Positions 8,532-50,206 of a stretch of 64,000 bases of DNA are shown in pieces. Position 1 is the stretch's first letter; every line of letters starts with the position of its first letter. The DNA comes from Candidatus Omnitrophota bacterium (GTDB lineage Bacteria > Omnitrophota > Gorgyraeia > Duberdicusellales > 4484-171), in NCBI GenBank assembly GCA_037146775.1, contig JBAWWL010000004.1, forward strand, positions 86,471-150,470, given 5' to 3'. The position numbers were made by a program, and so were the translations under genes. The notes below the pieces were generated by a model that ran no database searches, was not told the DNA's origin, and saw nothing but the letters and a program-made list of their open reading frames with translations.

Positions 8532-9788
8532 TTATAATTTACTTTTCCGTTGTGTCCTTGTTAATAACTTGCTTATTCTGCCAAATTTTCTTATCAAGAA
8601 GGAGCTTGTGTCTTTGCACCACGATAAAAAAGTATATAGCGGGTCCTCTAACATAAATACATCGAATACCTTTTTATAATTCGGATTGGAAATATAAAAA
8701 TATGGAAAAATAAACTCTTTTAGTGTAATCCTTTTTTTGGCTATGGCGCCAATCCCGCCCGATATATCTCCCGGTACCCTGAAACACTCAAAATATATAC
8801 ATTTTTTAGTTGTTACGCTTGTTGGTAAATTCAATAAATCCGCATAATAACCATAACCTATATCAAATCCGCTCCTAAAAAGCAGGTTGGAAAAACCGGG
8901 AAGTCTGGGGTTAAAATCAGTAAGAAAATAATCTTGTTCCTTTTTTGAAAAAATCCAGTCAAGATGCACAAAACCTTTCCAATGTAAATTATTCAACAAT
9001 TTTTTTGTCAATTCTTCAAGGCGGCGGTTACCGATAACTTTGCCGACATAAAGCCTGCTGCCAAAAGTACCGTCACTATTAAAACAGGTTCTTATTTTTT
9101 GTATGCATAAAACCCCTGCGCACTCGCCTCTCTTGTTATATAGACTCTCCGAACACCAAATATCTCGTATCCCACACTCTATAACCTCTTGGGTCATCAG
9201 CGAAGATTTCCTATATTTGTTTTGTGGCGAAGAAATTATATTTTCCATTTCTTTATAATTGCTTTCTAGATTATTTTTGTTTTCTACCTTCCTGTATATC
9301 CCTCCGGCAAGTCGCGTAGCTTTAATTATGCAGTTCTCCGAAAGTGCTTTCCAGCCTTTTTCGGTGTTTTCAATGGTATCAGCGAGAAAAGATTGCGGGG
9401 TATTTATCCCTATACTTTTACAATATGTATAACATTGCCATTTATCAAAAACTTTTTCAAAAGTATCAAGCTCCGCGATGTTCAAGGAATAGCCGCCATG
9501 TATCAATTCAGCTTGTGATTCCGAAATCAGTTCTGCACTAATGTCTCCCGAATAAATTAATACTCCCCGATAAGGTAAGTCCAGTAAAAATTTAATATAT
9601 TCTTTTCCTTTTTCAACCGACGGAGAAATCACGCTTTTGCTTACGAAACGAGATTTAAAAGCAGTGCTGTTAGAAACGGAACTAAGCGCGATGATTGGGA
9701 TTCTACGAATGCCGAAAGAAGCCAAAAGGCCTTCCTGGGAACGTAGTTCGGAATCGGCTAAAATAACCGGTATTGCTTCTTTTGTCAT
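8532..9788 (-). CDS. ATP-grasp domain protein
   Basis: DFNPRLPGF (E/D-x-N-P-R) ATP-grasp signature near the C-terminus. Confidence 0.5.
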   Translation of the reverse strand: MTKEAIPVILADSELRSQEGLLASFGIRRIPIIALSSVSNSTAFKSRFVSKSVISPSVEKGKEYIKFLLDLPYRGVLIYSGDISAELISESQAELIHGGYSLNIAELDTFEKVFDKWQCYTYCKSIGINTPQSFLADTIENTEKGWKALSENCIIKATRLAGGIYRKVENKNNLESNYKEMENIISSPQNKYRKSSLMTQEVIECGIRDIWCSESLYNKRGECAGVLCIQKIRTCFNSDGTFGSRLYVGKVIGNRRLEELTKKLLNNLHWKGFVHLDWIFSKKEQDYFLTDFNPRLPGFSNLLFRSGFDIGYGYYADLLNLPTSVTTKKCIYFECFRVPGDISGGIGAIAKKRITLKEFIFPYFYISNPNYKKVFDVFMLEDPLYTFLSWCKDTSSFLIRKFGRISKLLTRTQRKSKL

Positions 9789-14512: not shown

Positions 14513-15802
14513 CTATTGAAGAGCATTTTGGTATATCGTTATAAACTTGGCTGCTATATTGCACCAGTCATAATGATCTTTAGCAATGTTTCTATCTAGA
14601 ACTTTCGGTAATTTTTTTGTCTTTAATATCTCTTCTAATTTATATTCCCATTCTTGGTAGCTGCGCACATCCGCAAGACACCCCACCCGCTCTTTTTCCA
14701 TAAGCTCCGCGGTCTGCCCTGTTTTTGTAGAAAACACCGGAAGTTCACAGGCAAACGCTTCCATGATACTAACCGAAGCACCTTCGGATAAACTTCCCGA
14801 CAAAAACATGTCGGCGCTGCTTAAATATTTTACCAATATTTCCCCTTTTCGATAACCTTCGAACTTTATCATGTTTTTCTGTAATAACGGTTGGGCTAGG
14901 TTTTGTAAATAACGCACATATCCGGGCTGGCCGCTGCCGATGACGATATATAAAAAATTGTATCGCTTGGCTAACGCATTCAAAACAGCGATTAGTTTGT
15001 CTTCTTGTTTTCTAACATTATAATTGGCGACGGTTATCATCACAAAAGTGTCCAGCGGTAATTGTAATTCTTTTCGACATTGCATTGTGTCCATTTTTTT
15101 AAAAACAGAAAAATCGCATCCCATGGTAATTTGTTTCAATTCATGCTTGTAAATCCTGCTTACATGCTCTATGTTTTTAGCGGAACAGTACGTAATATGA
15201 TGTATTTTATTGATGTGTCTTTTTAACCATATATGCTGGCTTAGAAGGCCGAGCTTACTGGGAATGTTCTTGGTAAAAGTGAAAAACTGCGTTGAAGGTA
15301 TTTCCAATTGCGCTCCGTGCAAAGAAAAAACAATGGGAATATTGTCGACAGTTTCTAAAATATCTTTGTTGATCCCCGGAAAAGAACCGTTGAGATGGAA
15401 AATCACAGGTCCTCGCTCGCCCTCTTTTTTCAACGCGTCTATCATAGGCGCAGACGATACTTCTTCTACGCGCTTAAGCCCATATAATTTTTGTATGCAT
15501 TGTGCAGGAAATACACGGCAAGTTAACCGATTCTCAAAAGTATGACTATATACTCTATCGGCTCTGATATCTGGTTGCCAGATTTCATAATCGAATTCGT
15601 CTGTTAATTTTAAAATTGCCTTGCCCAGAAGATGGGGAAAATCGTCATTCCAAATCCCAATCCAATTTTTATCTTCCGCATTCCATTTTCTGTCCGGTTC
15701 GACTTCGGAAGAAAATATATCATAGGGGGGCAGGTGGTTAATGACATTCAATATTTTTGTTTTACCGGACCGGCAATTATGTTTCATTAATTGGCCATGC
15801 AC
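14513..15802 (-). CDS. glycosyltransferase family 4-like
   Basis: C-terminal GT-B pattern (SLSEGASVSIMEAFACELPVFSTKTG). Confidence 0.5.
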   Translation of the reverse strand: MHGQLMKHNCRSGKTKILNVINHLPPYDIFSSEVEPDRKWNAEDKNWIGIWNDDFPHLLGKAILKLTDEFDYEIWQPDIRADRVYSHTFENRLTCRVFPAQCIQKLYGLKRVEEVSSAPMIDALKKEGERGPVIFHLNGSFPGINKDILETVDNIPIVFSLHGAQLEIPSTQFFTFTKNIPSKLGLLSQHIWLKRHINKIHHITYCSAKNIEHVSRIYKHELKQITMGCDFSVFKKMDTMQCRKELQLPLDTFVMITVANYNVRKQEDKLIAVLNALAKRYNFLYIVIGSGQPGYVRYLQNLAQPLLQKNMIKFEGYRKGEILVKYLSSADMFLSGSLSEGASVSIMEAFACELPVFSTKTGQTAELMEKERVGCLADVRSYQEWEYKLEEILKTKKLPKVLDRNIAKDHYDWCNIAAKFITIYQNALQ

Positions 15803-15916
15803 ATGTGTGTAGTAACTTATGTGCTGCTACTTTTATTGAATACATCTACGTGCTACTTCTAACCAATCTATCTAACGAAGATCTCTTCCGAGAAAAAATA
15901 TGCTTCTTCCTGGCTT

Positions 15917-16831
15917 TTAGAGATACGGCCCCGTACCTGTTTTGCCTCGAAAAAAATCTCTTATGCCTCTGATGACCGCAATATATCTGGTTATAATCGC
16001 CCCCACCCGGCAATAGGTTAATTTGATGATAAAATTATAAAGTATATAAGCGAGATGGCGCACAAATACGCGGTTACTGCCGGTGTGTTTTTTGACAAAA
16101 TATAACGCGCTTCTTGTGAGATAATACAGCGTTTTTTTAGAATCGTCTCCGAAAGTGGTGCTTGTCCAATGATACACAATTGCCTGCGGTTCATAGATAA
16201 TACTGCCGCCTTCCTTAATAATGCGGTAACACAAATCGGTTTCTTCCGAATAATAATAGAATTTTTCGTCAAAGCCGCCGAGTTCTATAAAATACTTGGC
16301 GGAAACCAGGAAAGCGCATCCGTTTACAAACTCGACGTTTTCTGTTTTATCATATTGCCCCTTGTCCTTTTCACCGTTACCTCTATTTGTAACTACCAAA
16401 GATGCTTTATTAAAAAAACCTCCCGTGGAACAAATAATATCTGAGAAACCTCTGTAAATTTTTGGACCAACGGCTTTTGTGCGCTCTTCCTCGAAATGAA
16501 AGGATAACCTTAAGATGCACTGTTTATTCAAAATAACATCGTTATTTAAAAACAACAACAGCTCGGCATCCCTCGCTAGAAGATATTGGGCTGCGCGGTT
16601 ACAGGCGGCTCCGTATCCGTAGCGTTCATTCATACACAAAATTTCGACACGGTAACCTCTTTCGTCAAGCTCGTTACGCAACTGTTTTTCGCACAACTCA
16701 TTTGACCCATTATCAACGACAAGCAGTTCTATATTTCTATAATCTGAATGTAAAACAGATTCGATAGCAAGCAGGGTGCTATATACATTATTATAGGTAA
16801 CTATGGCCACTCCCACTTTTTTAGCGTTCAA
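15917..16831 (-). CDS. glycosyltransferase family 2
   Basis: N-terminal VAIVTYNN...D.GS GT-A signature. Confidence 0.7.
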   Translation of the reverse strand: MNAKKVGVAIVTYNNVYSTLLAIESVLHSDYRNIELLVVDNGSNELCEKQLRNELDERGYRVEILCMNERYGYGAACNRAAQYLLARDAELLLFLNNDVILNKQCILRLSFHFEEERTKAVGPKIYRGFSDIICSTGGFFNKASLVVTNRGNGEKDKGQYDKTENVEFVNGCAFLVSAKYFIELGGFDEKFYYYSEETDLCYRIIKEGGSIIYEPQAIVYHWTSTTFGDDSKKTLYYLTRSALYFVKKHTGSNRVFVRHLAYILYNFIIKLTYCRVGAIITRYIAVIRGIRDFFRGKTGTGPYL

Positions 16832-17024
16832 CTCTTCTCCTCCTTTACCTCCGCAGCGACAGGCGTCCTATCGCACAAACAGGTACGTAAACTAAGTAAA
16901 TTTTTGTGTGCGCAAAAATCACAACGCTGTTTTCGAAACATTATCATTGCGCTTTGCCAGCCCGATTCTTGATGAATATTGCCTTCGGCGTTTTGCTCTT
17001 ATGTGAGCTGGATACTTTCAAGAA

Positions 17025-18431
17025 TCAGGTTTCTTGCAAAAAATCACGCGCCGTAAATTGTTCACATATTGCAAAAAATATCATTGTAAATACTACTTGA
17101 TACGAATAAGACAAACTAAATAAGTCCCACGTGAGCGCATATCCTCCCAAAAACGTACATAAACTCACCAGCAACACCCGCAATGACGATCTTGTCGGAT
17201 CGGAAAACGGTAATCGTCGCATAGACTGAAAGATAAGCTTCAGGTACGAGATGGTTAAAAAACAAAATATAGCCAAACCCATAACCCCAAACATCAACAC
17301 TGTATTAAAAAACCCCCAGTTATTGTCATAATATTCATAGGAAATATCAGAAAAACCATACCCCAAAAACATGTTATCTTTGATTCTCTGAAGCATGGGC
17401 TGTAACCCCTGTATCCTGGCATCAAAGGTATCGATATGGTGCCCCTCGCCCTTCATCAGAAGAAAGATCTGAAAGACCCTGCTAAATACACTTTCCTTGA
17501 TGTATGCGTCCGTCAACAAACCAGTGTTAATAAAAATAATCAGAACAAGCGCAGCGACGCAAATAAGCATAATAATATGGCCCACGGAACGCATTCTAGT
17601 AAAATAAACTCCTAATAGAATACAAAAGAACATGCCAAACATGAATCTTGTAGCAGAAAGTAACACACTTATAAATGCTATCATTGTTATGAAGTAGAGG
17701 TAATATTTTATGGGTGTGTTCTTCTTGTAAGGTAAAAGCAGCATTGGGCCGATATAGCATAGAATGAGGAGGCCCCACGCACCGGTAACCGGCCTTACTT
17801 CACCGGTAAGAGTATTGGTGATAACCATGCGCTCAAATGGAACAAGTACATTTATGAGTTCCTGATTGTTCATGAGCATATAAAACTGCGAAAAAAGCAG
17901 AAAAAATACGGCAGGAAAGAGCAGGTAGAAAAATTTGCACACCTTCTCTTTCGTGCCGACAAGGCCAAGAAAACTAATGAGCCAGGTCAGGTGAAATACT
18001 GGCCTCAAGAATATTATAGGCGTTTTGATGGAGGAGCTATTGATGGCGCCGCTGATAAAAGAAACCACGAGGTACAATATCAAAAGAGTAAAAGGAGTTT
18101 TTACTTGTATTTTTACGGGCTTTTTATAGAATAAAACTTTTAAAAACATGAGTACAGTAAAAATATCTGTAGGGGTAAAGGAAATGCGGGGTATAGGTTG
18201 AATGAGTGGCAGTCCAGCGCTCTCCGAGTTGAGAAAAAAAGATGCGGGAGTTTGCAGAAGTATGAAAAAAAACGCAATGAAAAAATAGTCTTTATTAGAA
18301 ACCCAGGCCCAAAGCAAAAGCGCTATAAAAAAAGGTAGAGCGAATACTTTGTGAAGATAAACTACATATACCGCCAGGGCCAGTACTATATAGAATAATA
18401 GCACCTCTTTGAAGAACTTTGGTTGTTTCAT
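17025..18431 (-). CDS. Wzy_C family membrane protein (O-antigen ligase / polymerase / possible PglL-like O-oligosaccharyltransferase)
   Basis: 468 aa, roughly 10-12 predicted TM helices with one large periplasmic loop containing Arg/His. Confidence 0.5.
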   Translation of the reverse strand: MKQPKFFKEVLLFYIVLALAVYVVYLHKVFALPFFIALLLWAWVSNKDYFFIAFFFILLQTPASFFLNSESAGLPLIQPIPRISFTPTDIFTVLMFLKVLFYKKPVKIQVKTPFTLLILYLVVSFISGAINSSSIKTPIIFLRPVFHLTWLISFLGLVGTKEKVCKFFYLLFPAVFFLLFSQFYMLMNNQELINVLVPFERMVITNTLTGEVRPVTGAWGLLILCYIGPMLLLPYKKNTPIKYYLYFITMIAFISVLLSATRFMFGMFFCILLGVYFTRMRSVGHIIMLICVAALVLIIFINTGLLTDAYIKESVFSRVFQIFLLMKGEGHHIDTFDARIQGLQPMLQRIKDNMFLGYGFSDISYEYYDNNWGFFNTVLMFGVMGLAIFCFLTISYLKLIFQSMRRLPFSDPTRSSLRVLLVSLCTFLGGYALTWDLFSLSYSYQVVFTMIFFAICEQFTARDFLQET

Positions 18432-18447
18432 AATCGTTTACGCGCTA

Positions 18448-20277
18448 CTAGTAGAATTTCTGCTCTTGCCAATATTCGTAAAATTTACCTTTCCGCGCAA
18501 GCAAATCTTCCAAAGATCCCTCCTCAACAATTCTACCTTTTTCCAACACCAAAATCTTATCCGCATGTTTGATGGTAGAAAGACGGTGGGCAATGGCGAT
18601 GACCGTTTTTCCTTGTAGCGTTTCACTTATTGATTCCTGGATCAATCGTTCGGTCTTTGAATCCAACGAACTTGTTGCTTCATCCAAAATAAGTATGTCG
18701 GAGTTTTTAAGCAAAGCTCTGGCTATAGAAACTCTTTGCCGTTCTCCTCCGGAAAGTTGTACGCCCCGGTCACCAATATACGTATCAAACCCGTCGGGTA
18801 AACTTGTGATAAAATCGTATAAACGCGCTTTTTTGGTAATGCCGACAAGTTCTTCCTGCGATACGGCCCGCCTCAAACCATACACAATATTGTTTCTGAA
18901 GGTATCATTGAAAAGCCAGGTGTCTTGGCTGACTACCGCCACGGAAGCCATTAGAGAAGCAGGGGTAAATTCACGGATGTCAATCCCATCAATCAGTATG
19001 GAGCGCGGCGGACAGTCATAAAAGCGTAATAAAAGATTTATGCAAGTGGTTTTCCCGCTCCCGGTCGGACCTACTAAAGCTATCATTTTTCCTTTTTCAA
19101 TGGAAAAAGTGACGTCTTTCAATACGGGCGTGTCGCTGGTATACGAAAAATTCAAATGCAGCATTTCCAATGCCCCGGTCAACCCGGTAAATGTTTTAGC
19201 ACCGCCGGTGATAATGTATTTGTCTTTATCCTCTAGCATATGTCTCACAACGGCCAGCGGGCCGCTAATGCTCGCAAACGCGGATCGCATCTGGTTTAAG
19301 GAGTTAAAAGTGGTTTGCGATTTTTTCAGGAGATAAAAAAATACCAAAAAACTTCCTATCTCAATGGTTTTGGTTTTACCCACCATAAACGCCATAAAAG
19401 AAAGAAGAAATAAAGTTGCCACCTGCACAATCACATCCTGCAGGGGACCGACCAAAAGCTGCTTCTTCTCTATGCTAAATTCCAACGTTTGTACTTCATC
19501 GCTTTTTGATGCGAATACCTTTTTTTCTTTTTCTTCGTTAGTATATAATTTAACCAGCGGCATACAAGATAGCACATTGAAAATATTTTTGCCGAGAGCG
19601 CTATACGCTGTTATGTAACTTTTGGAGGTTTTTTTTATTTTCACCATCAGCCACTTCAGGGAATAATTAAGGATCGGAAGAATAGTGATAATAAAAATAC
19701 TTACCTTCCACGAAATGAAAAACATCATCATCAAATACACCATCAGCATCAGAAGATAGCTTAACATACTTCCCAACCCCGCAAGTTGAGCGGTAATAAA
19801 TGTGATAAAATCTAATATTATGCTCTGAAGATACCCCGCGTTGTTGCGATCGAAAAACAATTTACCGAATATCAGATAACGATCAAAAAGAAGTTTTCTA
19901 AGTTCGTTGCCAAACCTTTTAATTTGATACGCGGCAGTGACTGATGCCAGATATTGAAATACATTTTTGGTTATCGAGGCGATAAACACGGTAAATACCA
20001 GCATTACAAAAACAGGGCTTCTTGGCGCATCAAATAGAGCGGGAAACGTGGCGATAATGGTCTTAAAAAATGGCATCACGCGCACAAAATGGAAGTCCAT
20101 CTTAATGATTCCGTTGGCCATAGGTATAAGAATACTCACGGCTACCGCTTCAAACAAAGCTGCGCCGACAGAGAATGCAATTGTTGCGATAAAATAAGCG
20201 GGACGCACGCCTACTTTACGTAAGAACGCCTTAAGCTGCATCGTGTTGAGATATATTTTTCTGATTTTCGTACCCAT
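18448..20277 (-). CDS. ABC transporter permease/ATP-binding fusion protein (MsbA/PglK/Wzk-like exporter)
   Basis: N-terminal six-TM domain; Walker A GPTGSGKTT, ABC signature LSGGERQR and Walker B ILILDEATS. Confidence 0.85.
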   Translation of the reverse strand: MGTKIRKIYLNTMQLKAFLRKVGVRPAYFIATIAFSVGAALFEAVAVSILIPMANGIIKMDFHFVRVMPFFKTIIATFPALFDAPRSPVFVMLVFTVFIASITKNVFQYLASVTAAYQIKRFGNELRKLLFDRYLIFGKLFFDRNNAGYLQSIILDFITFITAQLAGLGSMLSYLLMLMVYLMMMFFISWKVSIFIITILPILNYSLKWLMVKIKKTSKSYITAYSALGKNIFNVLSCMPLVKLYTNEEKEKKVFASKSDEVQTLEFSIEKKQLLVGPLQDVIVQVATLFLLSFMAFMVGKTKTIEIGSFLVFFYLLKKSQTTFNSLNQMRSAFASISGPLAVVRHMLEDKDKYIITGGAKTFTGLTGALEMLHLNFSYTSDTPVLKDVTFSIEKGKMIALVGPTGSGKTTCINLLLRFYDCPPRSILIDGIDIREFTPASLMASVAVVSQDTWLFNDTFRNNIVYGLRRAVSQEELVGITKKARLYDFITSLPDGFDTYIGDRGVQLSGGERQRVSIARALLKNSDILILDEATSSLDSKTERLIQESISETLQGKTVIAIAHRLSTIKHADKILVLEKGRIVEEGSLEDLLARKGKFYEYWQEQKFY

Positions 20278-20318
20278 AGTACTGGCTCCTCAACCGTTGA
20301 TTGAAAGAAAAGGGAATG

Positions 20319-20945
20319 TTATTGGCGAGAAACGTTAACTTTTTTTTCGAATCGTTCCCAGCCACCCCTTAAACTGATCAAGAAAGATATGCAGATTAGT
20401 TTTAAATCTAAAAGAAAATTAAATTTCTTAATATATTCCAAATCATATTTTAGTTTCTCTTCGACATCGGTATCGTGTTTACCGTTGACCTGGGCTAAGC
20501 CGGTTAAACCCGGCCGCATTGCGTGCCGATCAGCGTATCTTGGCACGGTTTTAATAAACTTTTCGACAAAAAAAATGCGTTCCGGCCTTGGCCCAACAAC
20601 ACTCATATCCCCTTTTAAAATATTGAGAAGTTGTGGAGATTCATCCATTGCACTCGCACGTAGAATTTTGCCTAATTTAGTTACTCGCGCATCCTCCGGC
20701 CTCGACCATACGGGCCCGGTCTCTTTTTCGGCATGCTTTATCATCGACCGAAATTTAAGGTGCCGGTAAATTTTACCGTCCTTACCTACCCGTTCATCGG
20801 TAAAAAAAATCGGCCGGCCATCTTCGAGTATAATGGCAAACACGATCAATATCCACAAGGGCAACGCAATAATTATCCCTGTTATGGAAAAAACCACATC
20901 AAACAACCGTTTTATTTTAAGCTGAATGAGCCTATTCTGTACCAT
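20319..20945 (-). CDS. undecaprenyl-phosphate sugar phosphotransferase (small PglC/WbaP C-terminal-type bacterial sugar transferase)
   Basis: KRLFDVV...PLW single re-entrant helix followed by the conserved catalytic domain (KFRSM, PGLTGLAQV); 208 aa. Confidence 0.75.
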   Translation of the reverse strand: MVQNRLIQLKIKRLFDVVFSITGIIIALPLWILIVFAIILEDGRPIFFTDERVGKDGKIYRHLKFRSMIKHAEKETGPVWSRPEDARVTKLGKILRASAMDESPQLLNILKGDMSVVGPRPERIFFVEKFIKTVPRYADRHAMRPGLTGLAQVNGKHDTDVEEKLKYDLEYIKKFNFLLDLKLICISFLISLRGGWERFEKKVNVSRQ

Positions 20946-32341: not shown

Positions 32342-33169
32342 CTAACCTAACCGCTTTGTGATCCTTTCCAGATCTTCCAAACTATAATATTCGATGGCGA
32401 TTTTTCCGCGGTTATTTCGCTTATGAAAAACTCGCACCTTTGTCCCCAAAGATTTTTGCAATGTATCCTCTACTTCCAGCACAAACGGGTCAACGCTTTT
32501 CCGCTTCTTGGAAGCCCTTTGTACCCGTGTCTCTATTTCTCGTACCGAAAGTCCCTCGCTAAGAATGTCCCTGAATAATTTTCTCTGCGCCTCTTCGGTC
32601 TCCATGCCCAGGATTGTCCGGGCTTGACTGCGCGTTATAATCCTCTTACGCACCGCTTCCTTGATTTCCGGCAGCAACCTTTGTAAGCGAAGCGTATTAG
32701 CAATAGTAGTTTTATCCTTGCCGACTACCTGCGCAACATCTTCAAGCGTAAATTCAAACTGTTCGATAAGTTGCTGAAATGATTCTGCTTCGTCGATCGG
32801 GTTTAAATCCTGGCGTTGCAGATTTTCTACGATCGCATAAATCAGTGCGTTTTTGTCATCGAGCTCTTTAATAATTGTTGGTATCTCATTGAGCCCCAAT
32901 GACTTAGCAGCGTGATATCTCCTGCCACCGGCCACTATTTCGTAACTCTCCTCCCCTGTTTTCCTCACGATAATCGGTTGGATTATACCTTTCTCTTTTA
33001 TCGAACGAGCTAATTCCTCCAATTCTTTCGTGTTCATCTCTTTCCGAGGTTGATACCGGCCGGGACTAATTTTATACATGGGTAAGTGAACGTAATCTTT
33101 TGCTGTCTCGAGCATATTTTTTTTCGGGATAAGGGCGTCGAGTCCTTTTCCTAAAACTTTTTTTTCCAT
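32342..33169 (-). CDS. parB: chromosome partitioning protein ParB/Spo0J
   Basis: ParB N-terminal box (GERRYRAA-like: GGRRYHAAK) and HTH; adjacent to parA. Confidence 0.85.
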   Translation of the reverse strand: MEKKVLGKGLDALIPKKNMLETAKDYVHLPMYKISPGRYQPRKEMNTKELEELARSIKEKGIIQPIIVRKTGEESYEIVAGGRRYHAAKSLGLNEIPTIIKELDDKNALIYAIVENLQRQDLNPIDEAESFQQLIEQFEFTLEDVAQVVGKDKTTIANTLRLQRLLPEIKEAVRKRIITRSQARTILGMETEEAQRKLFRDILSEGLSVREIETRVQRASKKRKSVDPFVLEVEDTLQKSLGTKVRVFHKRNNRGKIAIEYYSLEDLERITKRLG

Positions 33170-33963
33170 TACTGGCTTACCTCCTTAACCGCGACTTCAA
33201 TCGCTATTTTTTCTTTTAAAATTTCTTCGGTTAAATTTAGATAGGCTTTTGCCCCCACGCATATCGGATCATAAAAATGTATGGGCTTACCAAAACTGGG
33301 TGCTTCGGCAAGTCTGATGTTGCGCGGGATAATGGTATTAAATGTTTTTTCTTTAAAAAAATTCCTTACCTCTTCGATGACCTGTAACGTAAGCCGTGTC
33401 CTAAAATCCGCCATAGTCAACAAAACGCCCCTGATCTCCAAGCCAGGATTTAACCGTTCTCGAACAAGATCGGTGGTATGTAATAGTTTTGAAACTCCTT
33501 CCAAAGCATAATATTCACATTGTATGGGCACAATAACCCCATCAACAGCCACCAGCACATTAACGGTCAAAAGCCCCAGGGATGGCGGGGCGTCAATAAT
33601 AATATAGGCAAATTTGTCTTTTATTTTATAGAGCTCCTCTCTTAAGCGCATTTCTCTATTTTCGATAGCAACAAGCTCAATCTCTCCTCCGGTAAGCGCA
33701 ATACACGAAGGAAGAATGTATAGTCCGGACCATTGGGTAGGATAAATACTTTCTTCTATGGCCGCTGTTCCAGAAATAATATCATAGATTGATTGTTTGT
33801 TTTCGCTTGCAACCCCTAAGCCTGATGTAGCGTTACCTTGGGGATCCATATCAACAAGCAGTGTTTTTTGACCAGCAAGAGCTAAATATGATGCTAAATT
33901 GATGGCGCTGGTAGTTTTACCAGTACCGCCCTTTTGATTACAAATACCGATTATTTTTCCCAT
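33169..33963 (-). CDS. parA: chromosome partitioning ATPase ParA/Soj
   Basis: Deviant Walker A KGGTGKTT. Confidence 0.85.
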   Translation of the reverse strand: MGKIIGICNQKGGTGKTTSAINLASYLALAGQKTLLVDMDPQGNATSGLGVASENKQSIYDIISGTAAIEESIYPTQWSGLYILPSCIALTGGEIELVAIENREMRLREELYKIKDKFAYIIIDAPPSLGLLTVNVLVAVDGVIVPIQCEYYALEGVSKLLHTTDLVRERLNPGLEIRGVLLTMADFRTRLTLQVIEEVRNFFKEKTFNTIIPRNIRLAEAPSFGKPIHFYDPICVGAKAYLNLTEEILKEKIAIEVAVKEVSQ

Positions 33964-33976
33964 TATGGTTTGACGG

Positions 33977-34000
33977 TACCGTTTCCACGTGGAAACGGTA
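33977..34000. promoter_or_regulatory. parS-like perfect 24-bp palindrome TACCGTTTCCACGTGGAAACGGTA, 14 bp upstream of the parA start codon
   Basis: Core TTCCACGTGGAA is identical to the parS core; perfect dyad symmetry. Confidence 0.55.
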
Positions 34001-34150
34001 TACTTAGTTATTAAAAATAGCTTTTAATATATAAATAAGTATATTGCGATATTCTTGTATTTTTTCTAAATATAATATCATTGTAATCGCACATACCCCC
34101 CTTTGTCAAGAAAATTTTGTATTAGATGCCTAAAAAATTGCGTTTTGAGC

Positions 34151-34166
34151 GTTTCCACGTGGAAAC
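34151..34166. promoter_or_regulatory. parS-like 16-bp palindrome GTTTCCACGTGGAAAC (copy 2)
   Basis: Exact repeat of the copy-1 core. Confidence 0.5.
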
Positions 34167-34631
34167 TTTACCTACCTAAAACAAAAATCCAGACTATTTT
34201 GTACGATAACGTAATTACTGCTGCTGTCAACCTTTGAAATAATAGTACTGTTTCTCAATCAATTGTTTTGGTTGTTCGTTTAATATAATAACTATGCAAA
34301 AATAGAATAATACCGTTTGCAAATTATTTTTATGCTTTTCAATAGCAAGATATTGCCATATGTTATTGTTTTAACACTCGCGGAGTACGGTAGTAAGTAT
34401 TGATTGTCATATTCTAGGGCCTTTTTGACGCAACAAGCAGAATAAGTATGCTACCATAGATTCTTAAGAAACATTCGAAGACAGCTCAATAGCAATTATA
34501 TAGTATGTTCTTAAATTGTCACCATGCTGAAAATTTTATCCTTATTAACCAATCTGCAGGTATCATAAAGGCATGAAGCACATTTATGCTTGATTACCAA
34601 AGGTGGTTATTGAAAAAAGACCTTTTTGTAC

Positions 34632-34649
34632 CGTTTCCACGTGGAAACG
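34632..34649. promoter_or_regulatory. parS-like 18-bp palindrome CGTTTCCACGTGGAAACG (copy 3)
   Basis: Exact repeat of the core. Confidence 0.5.
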
Positions 34650-34765
34650 TCTAACTTGTAGATAATCCGGGATGTGTGGCTATGCGAATTGCTGTAGGTT
34701 AATAAGTCGCCTTGAGGTTTACTCTGTGCGGAAAATTCTGATATTAGAAAAAACTGTTGTTTTTA

Positions 34766-36202
34766 CTATGTTTTACACGTTTTCACGTGGAAACCTGTTT
34801 TGGCTACACGCATTTGGTAGGAAAGGGTGAGGATGTTTTGAACAAACCAATATATAGTAAGACAGGAGGGGAAAGTATAAAAAACTACTCCCATAACTAT
34901 AGACATGACCAATCCGATATTTTTTTGATCCGACGAAAGAGAAGAGGACGAACTAATTTTTTGTTGCACTATTCCTACAATTACGATTAAGATGGGTAAG
35001 ATGTTGATATAATCTACTGGCTGCGGGAAGGGGAGTTTAAATGCGTGATCCGGCAATGATAAATCTTTAATCCAAAGAAATGGCTGGCCTTTCAACTCTA
35101 CAAATTTTAGCAGTACTTGCCAAAGCGCGATAAACACCGGGAATTGTAGCAACATAGGTATACAGGACCCTGCGGGATTGACTTTGTTTTTTTTATACAA
35201 TTCAAGTGTTTCTTTATTAACTTTTTGCGGGTTATCCGGATACTTTTTTCTCAATTCTTCGATTTCCGGCTGAAGTTCTTGCATTTTTTTCATTGCCTTG
35301 GTGCTCATCATAGTGAAGGGGAACAAACAGCAATAAGTGAATAGAGAGAGAAGAATGATACTAATACCCCAGCTTTTCGTAAAAGAGAAAAAGAATTCTA
35401 ATAAACCTACCAAAATCAAGCCAATACCATGAAAAAACCCGTAATTAATAATGCTGTGCAAACCGAGTTTTTTGAGTTCTTTTTCTGAAAGCGGCCCTAT
35501 ATATAGAGATATTTCTTCTGGGACTGAAACCAATTCCAAAGAAAGCGTGTTTTTGGTTGGCAAAATATTCGCCATATACGAGCCCTTCAGCAGAGAAAGG
35601 CAGAAATGTTTTGCGCTTATCCCCACGAAAGCTACATTACTTACTATGGTGTTCTTGGCTTGCTTGAGAGATACTTTTTTGATGGTTTCGTTTTGTGTAT
35701 AGAAAACCTCTAAAAATTGTTGTTCTAAGTTTTTGTCGCTCAAGCTGTTAGAAAATATATTTATCCGCTGAGGAAGGGGAGAGGAGAGTTTTATTTTAAC
35801 TAAAAAGTCGCTAAAAATAAACTCTTTACGATTGCCTTGCGCTGAAATAAAGACAATTCTATCGTCTTGTACTTGACTTTTAAATTCTTTATCTTTATCT
35901 TGAGAGATAAAGCCGATGTTTCTAAAAGGGAGCTCTTCGTTGTATGATTTGATGGAAAGTTTTTTAATGTAACCTCCTCGCGGAGAATATGTTACAATAA
36001 ATTTACCGATGCTGGCTTGGGGGAGTTCACTATTGTCGTCTACCTCTGTTGCTGTTTCGACGGTTGGGGTTTCTACCGCAGCCGGCGCTGTTATTTGGGT
36101 GGCTGGCGGCAAAGTACGGGGGGCATATTTGGAAAGAAAATAGTTATAGCCGATAAAAAATAACAAAGTAAGAAAAATAGCCGGAAATAATCTTTTTTCC
36201 AT
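34766..36202 (-). CDS. yidC: membrane protein insertase YidC
   Basis: N-terminal TM, large periplasmic domain, conserved C-terminal five-TM core (PMLLQFPVFIALW...); synteny with yidD and rpmH. Confidence 0.85.
   Translation of the reverse strand: MEKRLFPAIFLTLLFFIGYNYFLSKYAPRTLPPATQITAPAAVETPTVETATEVDDNSELPQASIGKFIVTYSPRGGYIKKLSIKSYNEELPFRNIGFISQDKDKEFKSQVQDDRIVFISAQGNRKEFIFSDFLVKIKLSSPLPQRINIFSNSLSDKNLEQQFLEVFYTQNETIKKVSLKQAKNTIVSNVAFVGISAKHFCLSLLKGSYMANILPTKNTLSLELVSVPEEISLYIGPLSEKELKKLGLHSIINYGFFHGIGLILVGLLEFFFSFTKSWGISIILLSLFTYCCLFPFTMMSTKAMKKMQELQPEIEELRKKYPDNPQKVNKETLELYKKNKVNPAGSCIPMLLQFPVFIALWQVLLKFVELKGQPFLWIKDLSLPDHAFKLPFPQPVDYINILPILIVIVGIVQQKISSSSSLSSDQKNIGLVMSIVMGVVFYTFPSCLTIYWFVQNILTLSYQMRVAKTGFHVKTCKT
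34789..34804. promoter_or_regulatory. parS-like palindrome GTTTTCACGTGGAAAC (copy 4, one mismatch) at the extreme 3' end of yidC
   Basis: 15/16 match to the core. Confidence 0.45.
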
Positions 36203-36798: not shown

Positions 36799-36827
36799 TG
36801 TGAATAACTTGTGAATTTTGTGAATTA
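36799..36827 (+). promoter_or_regulatory. three tandem DnaA-box-like 9-mers (TGTGAATAA, TGTGAATTT, TGTGAATTA) at about 10-bp spacing just upstream of the dnaA start
   Basis: Each is a single mismatch from the consensus TGTGGATAA/TTATCCACA; a fourth copy lies in the dnaA-dnaN spacer. Confidence 0.55.
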
Positions 36828-38178: not shown

Positions 38179-38187
38179 TGTGAATAA
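38179..38187 (+). promoter_or_regulatory. DnaA box TGTGAATAA in the dnaA-dnaN intergenic region
   Basis: One mismatch from the consensus. Confidence 0.45.
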
Positions 38188-39369: not shown

Positions 39370-42014
<2,645 letters not shown>

Positions 42015-48340: not shown

Positions 48341-50206
48341 ATGAAAAAAAATAATTTTGGCGATTCCGCCTATCAGTTTAACACGAAAGATATAACTTTT
48401 GTCTTGATCATTCTTGTTCTGGCTATGGTTTTCAGGGTAATCTATTTTGCGGACTACAAAAACGCAAGTACATACCCTGTGCTGGCGCGTTCCGATAGCC
48501 ACTCTTACTATGTGTTGGCAAAAGATATCTCAAGCGGTGATGTTTTCGGGGGGAAGGCATTTATGACTTGGCCCCTGTACGCCTATTTTTTAGGTTTTCT
48601 GTTTAAGTTTTTCGGAGACAGCCCAATGCACGTATATTTTTTGCAGTTTATTTTAGGGGCGATTCACTGTGTCCTGGTTTATCTTATCGCTAAAATCGTA
48701 TTCAATCAAAAAGTCGCTTTTATTTCCGGCTTACTGTGTGTGTGGTATGGGATGTTTATATTTTATGACGGGCTGTTTATGTATACCAGCTTATCCATCT
48801 TTTTGAACTCTTTACTATTTTTGCTCATGCTATACGTGAAAAACGCACCCAGTAAAAAAAACCTTTTCTTCATAGGTCTTTTCACTGGCTTGTGTGCCCT
48901 CGCTCAACCCCTCATCGTGTTGTTTGGGGTTTCTTCTGTTGCGGCGATAGCGATGATTGCGAAATTGAACTGGCGAGCGCGCGTGTATAATTTTTCCTGT
49001 TTCATACTGGGGATGTGTCTGGTGGTTGGGGTAACAACGCTTAAAAATTACGTAGTAGAAAAAGATTTTATACTCTTGTCGGGCAATACCGGTTTCAATT
49101 TTTATTTGGGCAATAACTCCGAATCAACCGGAAACTTTTTTTGCCCCAATAACTTTAATTTGAATAAAGAAGACATGTTCCGCGACGCTAAGATTTTCGC
49201 AAACGCACAAACGGGGAAAAATTTAAAAACATCCGAAGTTTCTCGTTTCTGGTTTACTAAGGCCACGGAATTCATTAAAAAAAGTCCTTATCTCTGGGTA
49301 AAGCTTTTATGCAAAAAAATGATATATGCGTTCAGTCCGCGAGAATTCAACCAAGAGGTAGAATATTATTTTATCGCGGATACCATGAGAATTTTTAAGA
49401 TTATGCTTATGGATTTGAGAATCATATTACCATTGGGACTGTTGGGTATGCTCGTGTGCCTTAAAAAGTTTAAGCAAGTGTGGCTACTTTATCTTATGCT
49501 TATCACCATTGCGTGCAGTATGAGCTTATTTTTCGTGATCACGAAGCTGCGTATCGCCATGGCGCCTTTTTTGATAATTTTTGCGGCTTTCTGTATATAT
49601 CGCATGGGGAGTTTGTTGAAAAGTAAAAAATATCTCGGTTTAGGATTGCTATGTGTGGGGGCGATTGCCCTCGGTATTTTATTGAACCGTGATAAAATTT
49701 TTGCCGGGAACACAAACCCGGATTCACAATCCGTTCGTTCGCTTGTTGAGGAGCGTCTCTATGAGGCAGCTTATTACGAACACAAATCCGACTATAACAA
49801 GGCAATCCAGGAATTGGATACTGCGCATGATCTACAACCACGGAATACCTATGTTTTGTTTCATTTAGGTCTCGCGTACTACCGGATGAATGATTTTAAG
49901 AAAGCCGAAGAAAGATTTAAAGAAACCATCGAGCTCAACCCTCTTTTCGTCGACGCATATTATAATTTAGGATTTATGTACAACCACCAACAGCGTTTCT
50001 CCGAAGCCAAGGATATGCTCAATAAAGCGCTTTCCTTGGAACCGGAGAGCGTAGACACTCACTTCGAGTTAGCGTTAGTTTACAAAGCAACCGGTAATCT
50101 CAAGGAGGCCAGGGAGGAATTCGCTCTTGTTTTACGCGCCCTCGCGCGCTGGCGCAAAGCGGAAAGAGATATGGTTATTCAGGCGTTGCACTCCCTTGAT
50201 GGCTGA
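48341..50206 (+). CDS. glycosyltransferase family 39 (ArnT/PMT-like) membrane protein with C-terminal TPR repeats
   Basis: More than 10 TM helices in the N-terminal 450 aa; C-terminal TPR-like repeats (AYYNLGFMY..., HFELALVY...). Confidence 0.55.
   Translation: MKKNNFGDSAYQFNTKDITFVLIILVLAMVFRVIYFADYKNASTYPVLARSDSHSYYVLAKDISSGDVFGGKAFMTWPLYAYFLGFLFKFFGDSPMHVYFLQFILGAIHCVLVYLIAKIVFNQKVAFISGLLCVWYGMFIFYDGLFMYTSLSIFLNSLLFLLMLYVKNAPSKKNLFFIGLFTGLCALAQPLIVLFGVSSVAAIAMIAKLNWRARVYNFSCFILGMCLVVGVTTLKNYVVEKDFILLSGNTGFNFYLGNNSESTGNFFCPNNFNLNKEDMFRDAKIFANAQTGKNLKTSEVSRFWFTKATEFIKKSPYLWVKLLCKKMIYAFSPREFNQEVEYYFIADTMRIFKIMLMDLRIILPLGLLGMLVCLKKFKQVWLLYLMLITIACSMSLFFVITKLRIAMAPFLIIFAAFCIYRMGSLLKSKKYLGLGLLCVGAIALGILLNRDKIFAGNTNPDSQSVRSLVEERLYEAAYYEHKSDYNKAIQELDTAHDLQPRNTYVLFHLGLAYYRMNDFKKAEERFKETIELNPLFVDAYYNLGFMYNHQQRFSEAKDMLNKALSLEPESVDTHFELALVYKATGNLKEAREEFALVLRALARWRKAERDMVIQALHSLDG

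Follow-up and report, generated by a model that had tools for sequence, protein, structure and literature searches.

Four parS-like palindromes beside parAB in an Omnitrophota genome: candidate centromere sites of a variant form

We have analysed a 64,000-nucleotide stretch of a Candidatus Omnitrophota genome (GenBank assembly GCA_037146775.1, contig JBAWWL010000004.1, positions 86,471 to 150,470; hereafter the window), and in particular four palindromes that lie between parA and yidC and resemble parS, the site bound by the chromosome partition protein ParB. The genes of the minus strand run in the order gmk, yicC, ndk, parB and parA, followed by the intergenic spacer and then by yidC, yidD and rpmH, whilst a block on the plus strand holds dnaA, dnaN, a DciA-like open reading frame (ORF) and an ORF of 787 aa. 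This last ORF occupies the position of gyrB in two syntenic loci (L002 and L003), and the dnaA-dnaN-gyrB region is about 2 kb from the palindromes. The features on which the argument rests are these:

32342..33169, minus strand: parB, 275 aa, with the Pfam domains ParB_N, HTH_ParB and ParB_C
32618..32722, minus strand: the part of parB for the helix-turn-helix (HTH) and alpha6, translating as GKDK(153)TTIANT(159)LRLQR(164)...ITRS(181)Q(182)AR
33169..33963, minus strand: parA, a Soj-type deviant Walker A ATPase of 264 aa (Pfam AAA_31 at 1e-60, CbiA), N-terminus MGKIIGICNQKGGTGKT
33964..34765, no strand: parA-yidC intergenic spacer, 802 bp, GC 32.7%, containing the cumulative G-C minimum (34260)
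33977..34000, no strand: site 1, a 24-bp perfect palindrome, TACCGTTTCCAC joined to GTGGAAACGGTA, with the core GTTTCCACGTGGAAAC at 33981-33996
34080..34109, minus strand: predicted sigma-70-type parA promoter, TTGACA (34109-34104), 18 nt, TACAAT (34085-34080)
34151..34166, no strand: site 2, GTTTCCACGTGGAAAC, 41 bp upstream of the -35 hexamer of the predicted parA promoter
34632..34649, no strand: site 3, an 18-bp palindrome, CGTTTCCACGTGGAAACG, with its core at 34633-34648
34779..34794, no strand: site 4, GTTTTCACGTGGAAAC, asymmetric at the variable position, within the last nine codons of yidC

A pattern scan of the window returned three perfect copies of GTTTCCACGTGGAAAC (33981-33996, 34151-34166 and 34633-34648) and one copy with a single mismatch (GTTTTCACGTGGAAAC, 34779-34794), the same tally as in an earlier account made from the letters alone (the sequence-only reading). 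All four fall inside one 830-bp stretch, and the 64 kb contain no further copy of the degenerate form GTTTYCACGTGRAAAC, even when three mismatches are allowed. This clustering is not random: the chance expectation for the four sites is 0.00, and none of 100 dinucleotide-preserving shuffles gave any match. Site 1 stands 17 bp upstream of the parA ATG, within the predicted 5′ leader; 25.5 bp separate its centre from the start of that codon (33963), in line with the sequence-only reading, which had described a 24-bp palindrome centred about 25 bp from the parA start. The predicted promoter matches 11 of 12 consensus positions and is flanked by sites 1 and 2, whilst sites 3 and 4 lie 670–815 bp from the parA ATG, on the side of yidC. 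The earlier account had also placed all four copies in an 830-bp AT-rich spacer between parA and yidC. AT-rich it is, but the spacer is 802 bp long and site 4 overlaps the end of the yidC ORF (...GFHVKTCKT, then stop), and hence is not intergenic. A half-site-like sequence, TACCGTTTGCA, is present in mid-spacer (34311-34321) and agrees at 10 of 11 positions with the left arm of sites 1 and 3; apart from this and the sites themselves, the repeats in the spacer are merely short families at chance level. The window's only Rfam matches are tRNAs, and the spacer has none.

The consensus of the sites is GTTTYCAC-GTGRAAAC, often flanked by C...G in Omnitrophota. Set against canonical parS (TGTTNCACGTGNAACA), the variant GTTTYCACGTGRAAAC has the same inner 12 bp and the outer dinucleotide GT instead of TG, which bears out the earlier description of a parS core with the outer two positions of each arm swapped. 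Relative to the canonical arms TGTTNCAC and GTGNAACA, the guanine of each arm is thus one bp farther from the dyad (8 bp vs 7). Compared with the canonical consensus, the spacer sites differ at 4 of 16 positions, and nothing in the spacer comes within three mismatches; we therefore class them as variant rather than canonical parS, and searches with the consensus miss them for the same reason. Canonical parS (TGTTNCACGTGAAACA) is absent from the window, where the sole match with three mismatches is an unrelated sequence at 48828. Natural canonical sites of the form TGTTCCACGTGGAACA were found in three other loci (L029, L062 and L072). The likeness to the canonical sites of Bacillus subtilis Spo0J, Caulobacter ParB and Thermus Spo0J is otherwise close, since these too are 16-bp palindromes on CACGTG with a variable fifth position, and occur in multiple copies beside parAB and the replication origin; what sets the window sites apart is the GT outer dinucleotide with its outward guanine.

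The sites are conserved together with parAB. Synteny of yidC and parA is kept in other Omnitrophota loci, and all Omnitrophota parAB loci with enough upstream DNA to be counted, twelve in number (L001-L004, L006, L009, L011, L095, L101, L134, L150 and L187), have between two and six copies of GTTTYCACGTGRAAAC between the two genes and no canonical parS. In the Omnitrophota loci the parA-proximal copy always ends 11–59 bp short of the parA start codon, and all copies in the 20-kb loci L001-L004 are inside the spacer. Over 35 Omnitrophota sites the half-site G-T-T-T-Y-C-A-C is invariant apart from Y, with a preference for a flanking C (40 of 70 half-sites). Locus L009 encodes a ParB about 90% identical to that of the window and has a spacer diverged by many substitutions and indels, in which the most prominent conserved islands are the four palindromes, the TTGACA and TACAAT hexamers (identical in both) and the parA start; site 1 is perfectly conserved there, sites 2 and 3 are conserved islands, and site 4 is kept as GTTTCCACGTGAAAAC on the parA strand. 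Two loci bear unexpected taxonomic labels. The ParB and site arrangement of L187, labelled Planctomycetia, are nearly identical to those of core Omnitrophota, and those of L122, labelled Eggerthellaceae, to those of Elusimicrobiales L109; both are probably mis-binned or mislabelled.

Beyond Omnitrophota, GTTTYCACGTGRAAAC was scanned for in one genome per GTDB species (185,579 species genomes, 596 Gb), giving at least 120 stretches; by our own arithmetic some 550 matches would be expected by chance over 596 Gb. The matches listed are far from a random taxonomic sample, coming mostly from Elusimicrobiota (about 30 of the 120 listed), Omnitrophota, including Planctomycetia-labelled contigs with an Omnitrophota-type ParB (about 15), and Gaiellales/Thermoleophilia with similar actinobacterial metagenome-assembled genomes (MAGs) of 70% GC (about 30). 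A few of the 120 are from Saccharimonadia, and there are scattered singletons from Proteobacteria and Bacillota that look like chance. parA and/or parB are present in 34 of the 120 8-kb loci listed, a figure to be compared with well under 1% for a random position, and parAB is the sole neighbour common to the site-bearing loci of Omnitrophota and Elusimicrobiota. The position beside parAB is fixed in both phyla, with sites upstream of parA in 12 Omnitrophota and 18 Elusimicrobiota loci; in the latter, sites precede the parA ATG by 20–110 bp and then recur at a distance of about 1.1 kb. The variant is thus no peculiarity of the present genome, but the palindrome that goes with parAB in at least two phyla.

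The Gaiellales/Thermoleophilia form, cGTTTYCACGTGRAAACg, was found in L086, L092, L102, L103, L107 and about 25 other loci listed. It often occurs as pairs 23–41 bp apart (L092 at 1836 and 1859, L103 at 281 and 322, L107 at 2813 and 2845), and it is clearly non-random, being far too AT-rich for a chance match in DNA of about 70% GC. In other carriers, such as the Elusimicrobiaceae genome ruminal_MAG_185 and the bin SI.B36.38, the copies are scattered across several contigs or across distances of tens to hundreds of kilobases. The latter (uncultured bacterium SI.B36.metabat-bins.38, about 30% GC; loci L091, L104, L138, L154, L161 and L189) has at least seven copies in all, distributed along some 170 kb of a single contig and on two further contigs, both copies in L154 being AAAGTTTCCACGTGGAAACTTTT, and the pattern resembles the dispersed parS of some bacteria.

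The ParB encoded beside the sites is of ordinary build. It shares the three-domain architecture and the conserved ENLQR and GxRR boxes of canonical ParB, has a QPR box and an N-terminus of the ParA-interaction type (LGKGLDALI), and is encoded with an AAA_31 ParA as in other parAB operons. It passes TIGR00180 and scores 223 against TIGR04285, the Noc model, for which the cut-off is 315; its matches in the PDB are Spo0J (1vz0, at 2e-50) and also Noc and ParB chains. The protein is 100% identical to an NCBI protein from a Candidatus Omnitrophota MAG, and its 120 best relatives are from Omnitrophota wherever they are named. There is no second ParB-like or Noc paralogue gene in the 64-kb window. 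In the GERR box, residue 82 (codon 32924-32926, minus strand) makes the motif GGRR; of the 120 homologs, 61 have E and 50 have G at the equivalent position. The corresponding glutamate, E102 in Caulobacter, is required for CTP hydrolysis. If that role holds, about half of the 120 homologous ParBs may hydrolyse CTP poorly.

The structures of Caulobacter ParB with parS and of Noc with its Noc-binding site (NBS) have been solved (Jalal et al., 2020; PMC7383237). ParB contacts DNA through Q162, G170, K171, S172, R173, N178, G201 and R204, with R173 making a hydrogen bond to guanine 1 of the half-site GTTTCAC (PMC7383237). Specificity is set by positions 173, 179, 184 and 201, which read RTAG in ParB and QKKR in Noc, and in a library of 160,000 variants every parS binder had kept R173 (PMC7383237). 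We assigned the equivalent residues by motif spacing (G-K-x-[173]-x4-N...[201]-x2-R) and by gap-free HMMER alignments to Thermus Spo0J, Geobacillus Noc and Myxococcus ParB. Over these motifs the window ParB has G150, K151, D152, K153, N158, T159, R164, S181, Q182, A183 and R184, so that its specificity positions are K/T/R/S, where Caulobacter ParB has R/T/A/G and Noc has Q/K/K/R. This comparison, of a kind that the sequence-only reading had called for with B. subtilis Spo0J, places Lys153 where all characterised parS binders have Arg173. The substitution is general amongst the 120 closest homologs, of which 119 have K at position 173 (Caulobacter numbering here and below), 118 have S or T at 201, 119 have Q at 202 (H elsewhere) and 91 have L at 162. 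Unlike canonical ParBs, then, the core Omnitrophota clade is also changed at three further contact positions, Q162, G201 and H202 being replaced by L, S/T and Q.

Site type covaries with residue 173. Signature residues were taken by alignment and the sites were typed locally in all fetched loci, which gave 51 typed ParBs, of which 37 have nothing but variant GTTT half-sites and 14 nothing but canonical TGTT ones. Residue 173 is K in 32, R in 4 and P in 1 of the former, and R in all 14 of the latter; within the DNA-binding domain this column segregates best, tied with one other. Position 200 is hydrophobic in the canonical ParBs and E, R or T in the variant ones. In the subset found through ParB (L005-L084) no K173 ParB has a canonical site, and wherever an R173 ParB goes with a clear palindromic site the arms are canonical TGTT, the exception being L017 with mixed arms. 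On a neighbour-joining tree, K173 with variant sites appears at least four times: in core Omnitrophota, in another Omnitrophota group (L110 Makaraimicrobium, L117, L144 and L188), in Elusimicrobiota, and in L075. The last is nested among canonical ParBs, being 74–75% identical to L027 and L046, whose sites are of the TGTTCC..GGAACA type, whilst L075 itself combines K173 with the site GTTTCCGCGTGGAAAC; it is the cleanest independent switch.

Taken together, these comparisons make it highly probable, in our view, that the four palindromes are chromosomal parS centromere sites, as a variant specific to the lineage. Their place near the origin agrees with this, GC skew changing sign at the spacer and dnaA and dnaN being 2 kb away. 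It is probably through changes in its own surface that ParB recognises the changed outer dinucleotide. Following known ParABS biology, dimers of the neighbouring ParB would nucleate on the palindromes through their HTH domains, close as CTP-dependent clamps and spread along origin-proximal DNA, and the partition complex so formed would be moved by ParA. The same complex would also repress, and so autoregulate, parAB. Such autoregulation is most likely, given that the parA promoter is enclosed by sites 1 and 2 and that 17 bp separate site 1 from the ATG. Lys173 (K153 in the window ParB), with the other replaced contact residues, might read the outward-displaced guanine, although this is speculation. 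Spreading, autoregulation and the structural part given to K153 are what we infer.

Some points weigh against this reading. The binding of ParB to the sites is itself deduced from sequence comparison. Fisher's test for residue 173 vs site type gives p = 9e-9 with kinship ignored, and the variant-site loci L085-L204 were ascertained through the motif itself. An Elusimicrobia subclade (L119, L129, L142 and L182) has Arg173 yet variant sites, and therefore Lys173 is the best correlate of the variant, not an absolute requirement. In Gaiellales, no parAB is found inside the 8-kb loci listed. As the sole determinant of site type, Lys173 can be rejected, since the Arg173 subclade keeps variant sites. 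The sites of that subclade are mostly flanked by T...A (TGTTTTCACGTGAAAACA), and sites of this type can also be read as canonical TGTT arms shifted one bp outward; the subclade is a possible intermediate.

The sequence-only reading had left the choice between a variant centromere and an operator for another dimeric regulator, and conservation beside parAB, the single ParB and the covariation at residue 173 favour the former. The palindromes might still be ParB operators that solely autoregulate the parAB promoter, with the centromere elsewhere or absent. The conserved promoter bracketed by sites 1 and 2, the closeness of site 1 to the ATG and the confinement of all window copies to about 830 bp from parA would suit such a scheme, but sites 3 and 4 are too distant from the ATG for a simple operator, the 64 kb offer no other parS-like sequence, and the dispersed copies in other carriers (ruminal_MAG_185 and SI.B36.38) are better suited to loading sites. 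Known systems, moreover, use one set of parS for both roles. We therefore think this scheme unlikely, and an operator role is probably an additional function of the same candidate ParB sites. A different dimeric transcription factor acting on parAB or yidC is harder still to reconcile with the data. CACGTG-centred palindromes are generic dimer sites, and it is by inference that ParB is linked to the motif; yet 12 of the 16 bp are those of canonical parS and the window has a single ParB-like gene. A regulator other than ParB is very unlikely, because only parA and parB are common to the Omnitrophota and Elusimicrobiota loci and because the type of site tracks a DNA-contact residue of ParB, even within one ParB subfamily.

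Nor do the palindromes behave like nucleic acid hairpins, whether yidC terminators, attenuators in the parA leader or elements of the repetitive extragenic palindromic kind. A consensus scan did flag site 1 as a terminator-like stem, on the plus strand, and site 3 is downstream of yidC. The stems, however, are without a loop, and this sole terminator-like call is on a strand where no gene ends at site 1. It is the sequence itself that is kept across phyla, without compensatory changes; at the variable position 5/12, which corresponds to the unread N of parS, 11 of the 35 Omnitrophota sites lack complementarity, a change that would disrupt a hairpin, and the other 63 kb have no copy of the motif. 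A hairpin function is thus extremely improbable. The remaining alternative, that the palindromes are elements of oriC bound by the initiator or an origin-organising factor, draws on the signals of the origin region. The cumulative G-C minimum of the whole window (34260) is between sites 2 and 3, and in L002 the minimum (8869) is again inside the yidC-parA spacer (8818-9207). The spacer is AT-rich, and in the window, L002 and L003 alike neither the spacer nor the surroundings of dnaA hold an array of DnaA boxes (TTATCCACA-like 9-mers). Against this, the motif is unlike DnaA boxes, it follows parAB rather than dnaA across phyla and is dispersed in some genomes, the skew minimum of L003 falls elsewhere, and placement close to the origin is normal for parS. 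An origin element is accordingly a highly improbable explanation, and we prefer to regard the palindromes as variant parS.

The origin may nevertheless lie within the parS cluster, with initiator sites that are not recognisable by the E. coli consensus. The spacer has one DnaA-box match at one mismatch or fewer and background density at two or fewer, so the sequence-only reading was right that it lacks an array. The companion statement, that the boxes sit beside dnaA instead, is weak: a single TTATTCACA is indeed present upstream of dnaA (36799-36807 in the window, 6749 in L002, 6689 in L003) and a second between dnaA and dnaN (38179-38187 in the window, 5329 in L002), but these form no array and look more like dnaA autoregulation than oriC. 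The small DciA-like ORF between dnaN and the 787-aa ORF (39370-39648; Pfam DciA, E = 8e-6) is at the spot where many bacteria have recF or remB-type genes, and ORFs of similar size are at that position in L002 and L003. Downstream of parAB-ndk-yicC-gmk-rpoZ in L004 (Candidatus Susulua, 15548-20828) is a group of an HTH gene, an RVT_1 reverse transcriptase, RadC and an HsdR-like helicase of the type I restriction kind. The group has the look of a defence island, and L003, syntenic in other respects, lacks it.

Parallels may be drawn with two kinds of known system. In Noc and NBS of Bacillota (ATTTCCCGGGAAAT; Q173 K179 K184 R201; PMC7383237), as here, a few HTH and alpha6 residues retarget the ParB fold, and residue 173 is changed along with the outer base that it reads; the Omnitrophota ParBs are also basic at 184, the ‘permissive’ Noc position. 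The variant sites, however, keep the CACGTG core rather than CCCGGG, the Omnitrophota residues are K/x/[KR]/[ST] rather than Q/K/K/R, and the window ParB is the sole ParB there, encoded with parA and with its sites clustered at the origin. Identity with Noc and NBS is ruled out by the CACGTG core, the K/T/R/S residues and the TIGR04285 score of 223 against 315.

Replicon-specific parS variants are known from Vibrio cholerae (ParB2 and parS2) and from chromosomes 2 and 3 of Burkholderia cenocepacia. These too are dedicated ParB/parS pairs with off-consensus sites and no cross-recognition, but they are extra systems by which a cell tells its replicons apart, whereas the variant described here is apparently the sole, primary chromosomal system of whole phyla. 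Our search of the literature, with most subscription journals outside it, gave no match to the exact 16-mers or their cores, to parS in Omnitrophota or Elusimicrobia, or to this non-canonical parS. The architecture is that of an ordinary ParABS system; what is new is a variant of the site at the level of the phylum with matching changes in ParB.

We propose, with about equal confidence and doubt, that there is a third natural specificity class of ParB, typified by Lys173, which reads GTTTYCACGTGRAAAC with its guanine one bp outward, has multiple independent origins, is orthogonal to canonical ParB/parS and serves Omnitrophota and Elusimicrobiota, and probably Gaiellales too, as their primary centromere system. 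If this evenly balanced proposal is right, the class would stand beside the parS type, in which Arg173 reads G1, and the Noc type, in which Gln173 reads A1, and nature would offer a series of intermediates in a switch of specificity. In most accounts parS ranks among the most conserved bacterial cis-elements, and Arg173 is described as invariant among the ParB proteins that bind it. Whole uncultivated phyla nevertheless appear to use a parS with a shifted guanine and a Lys173 ParB, and searches for the consensus wrongly report such genomes as lacking parS. The changes in ParB and site would represent a natural and repeatedly evolved co-evolution that extends the work on specificity from ParB to Noc, and, if true, could provide an orthogonal ParB/parS pair for imaging and DNA labelling. 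The sites would also mark the origin region in MAGs of Omnitrophota and Elusimicrobiota, where origins are otherwise hard to place.

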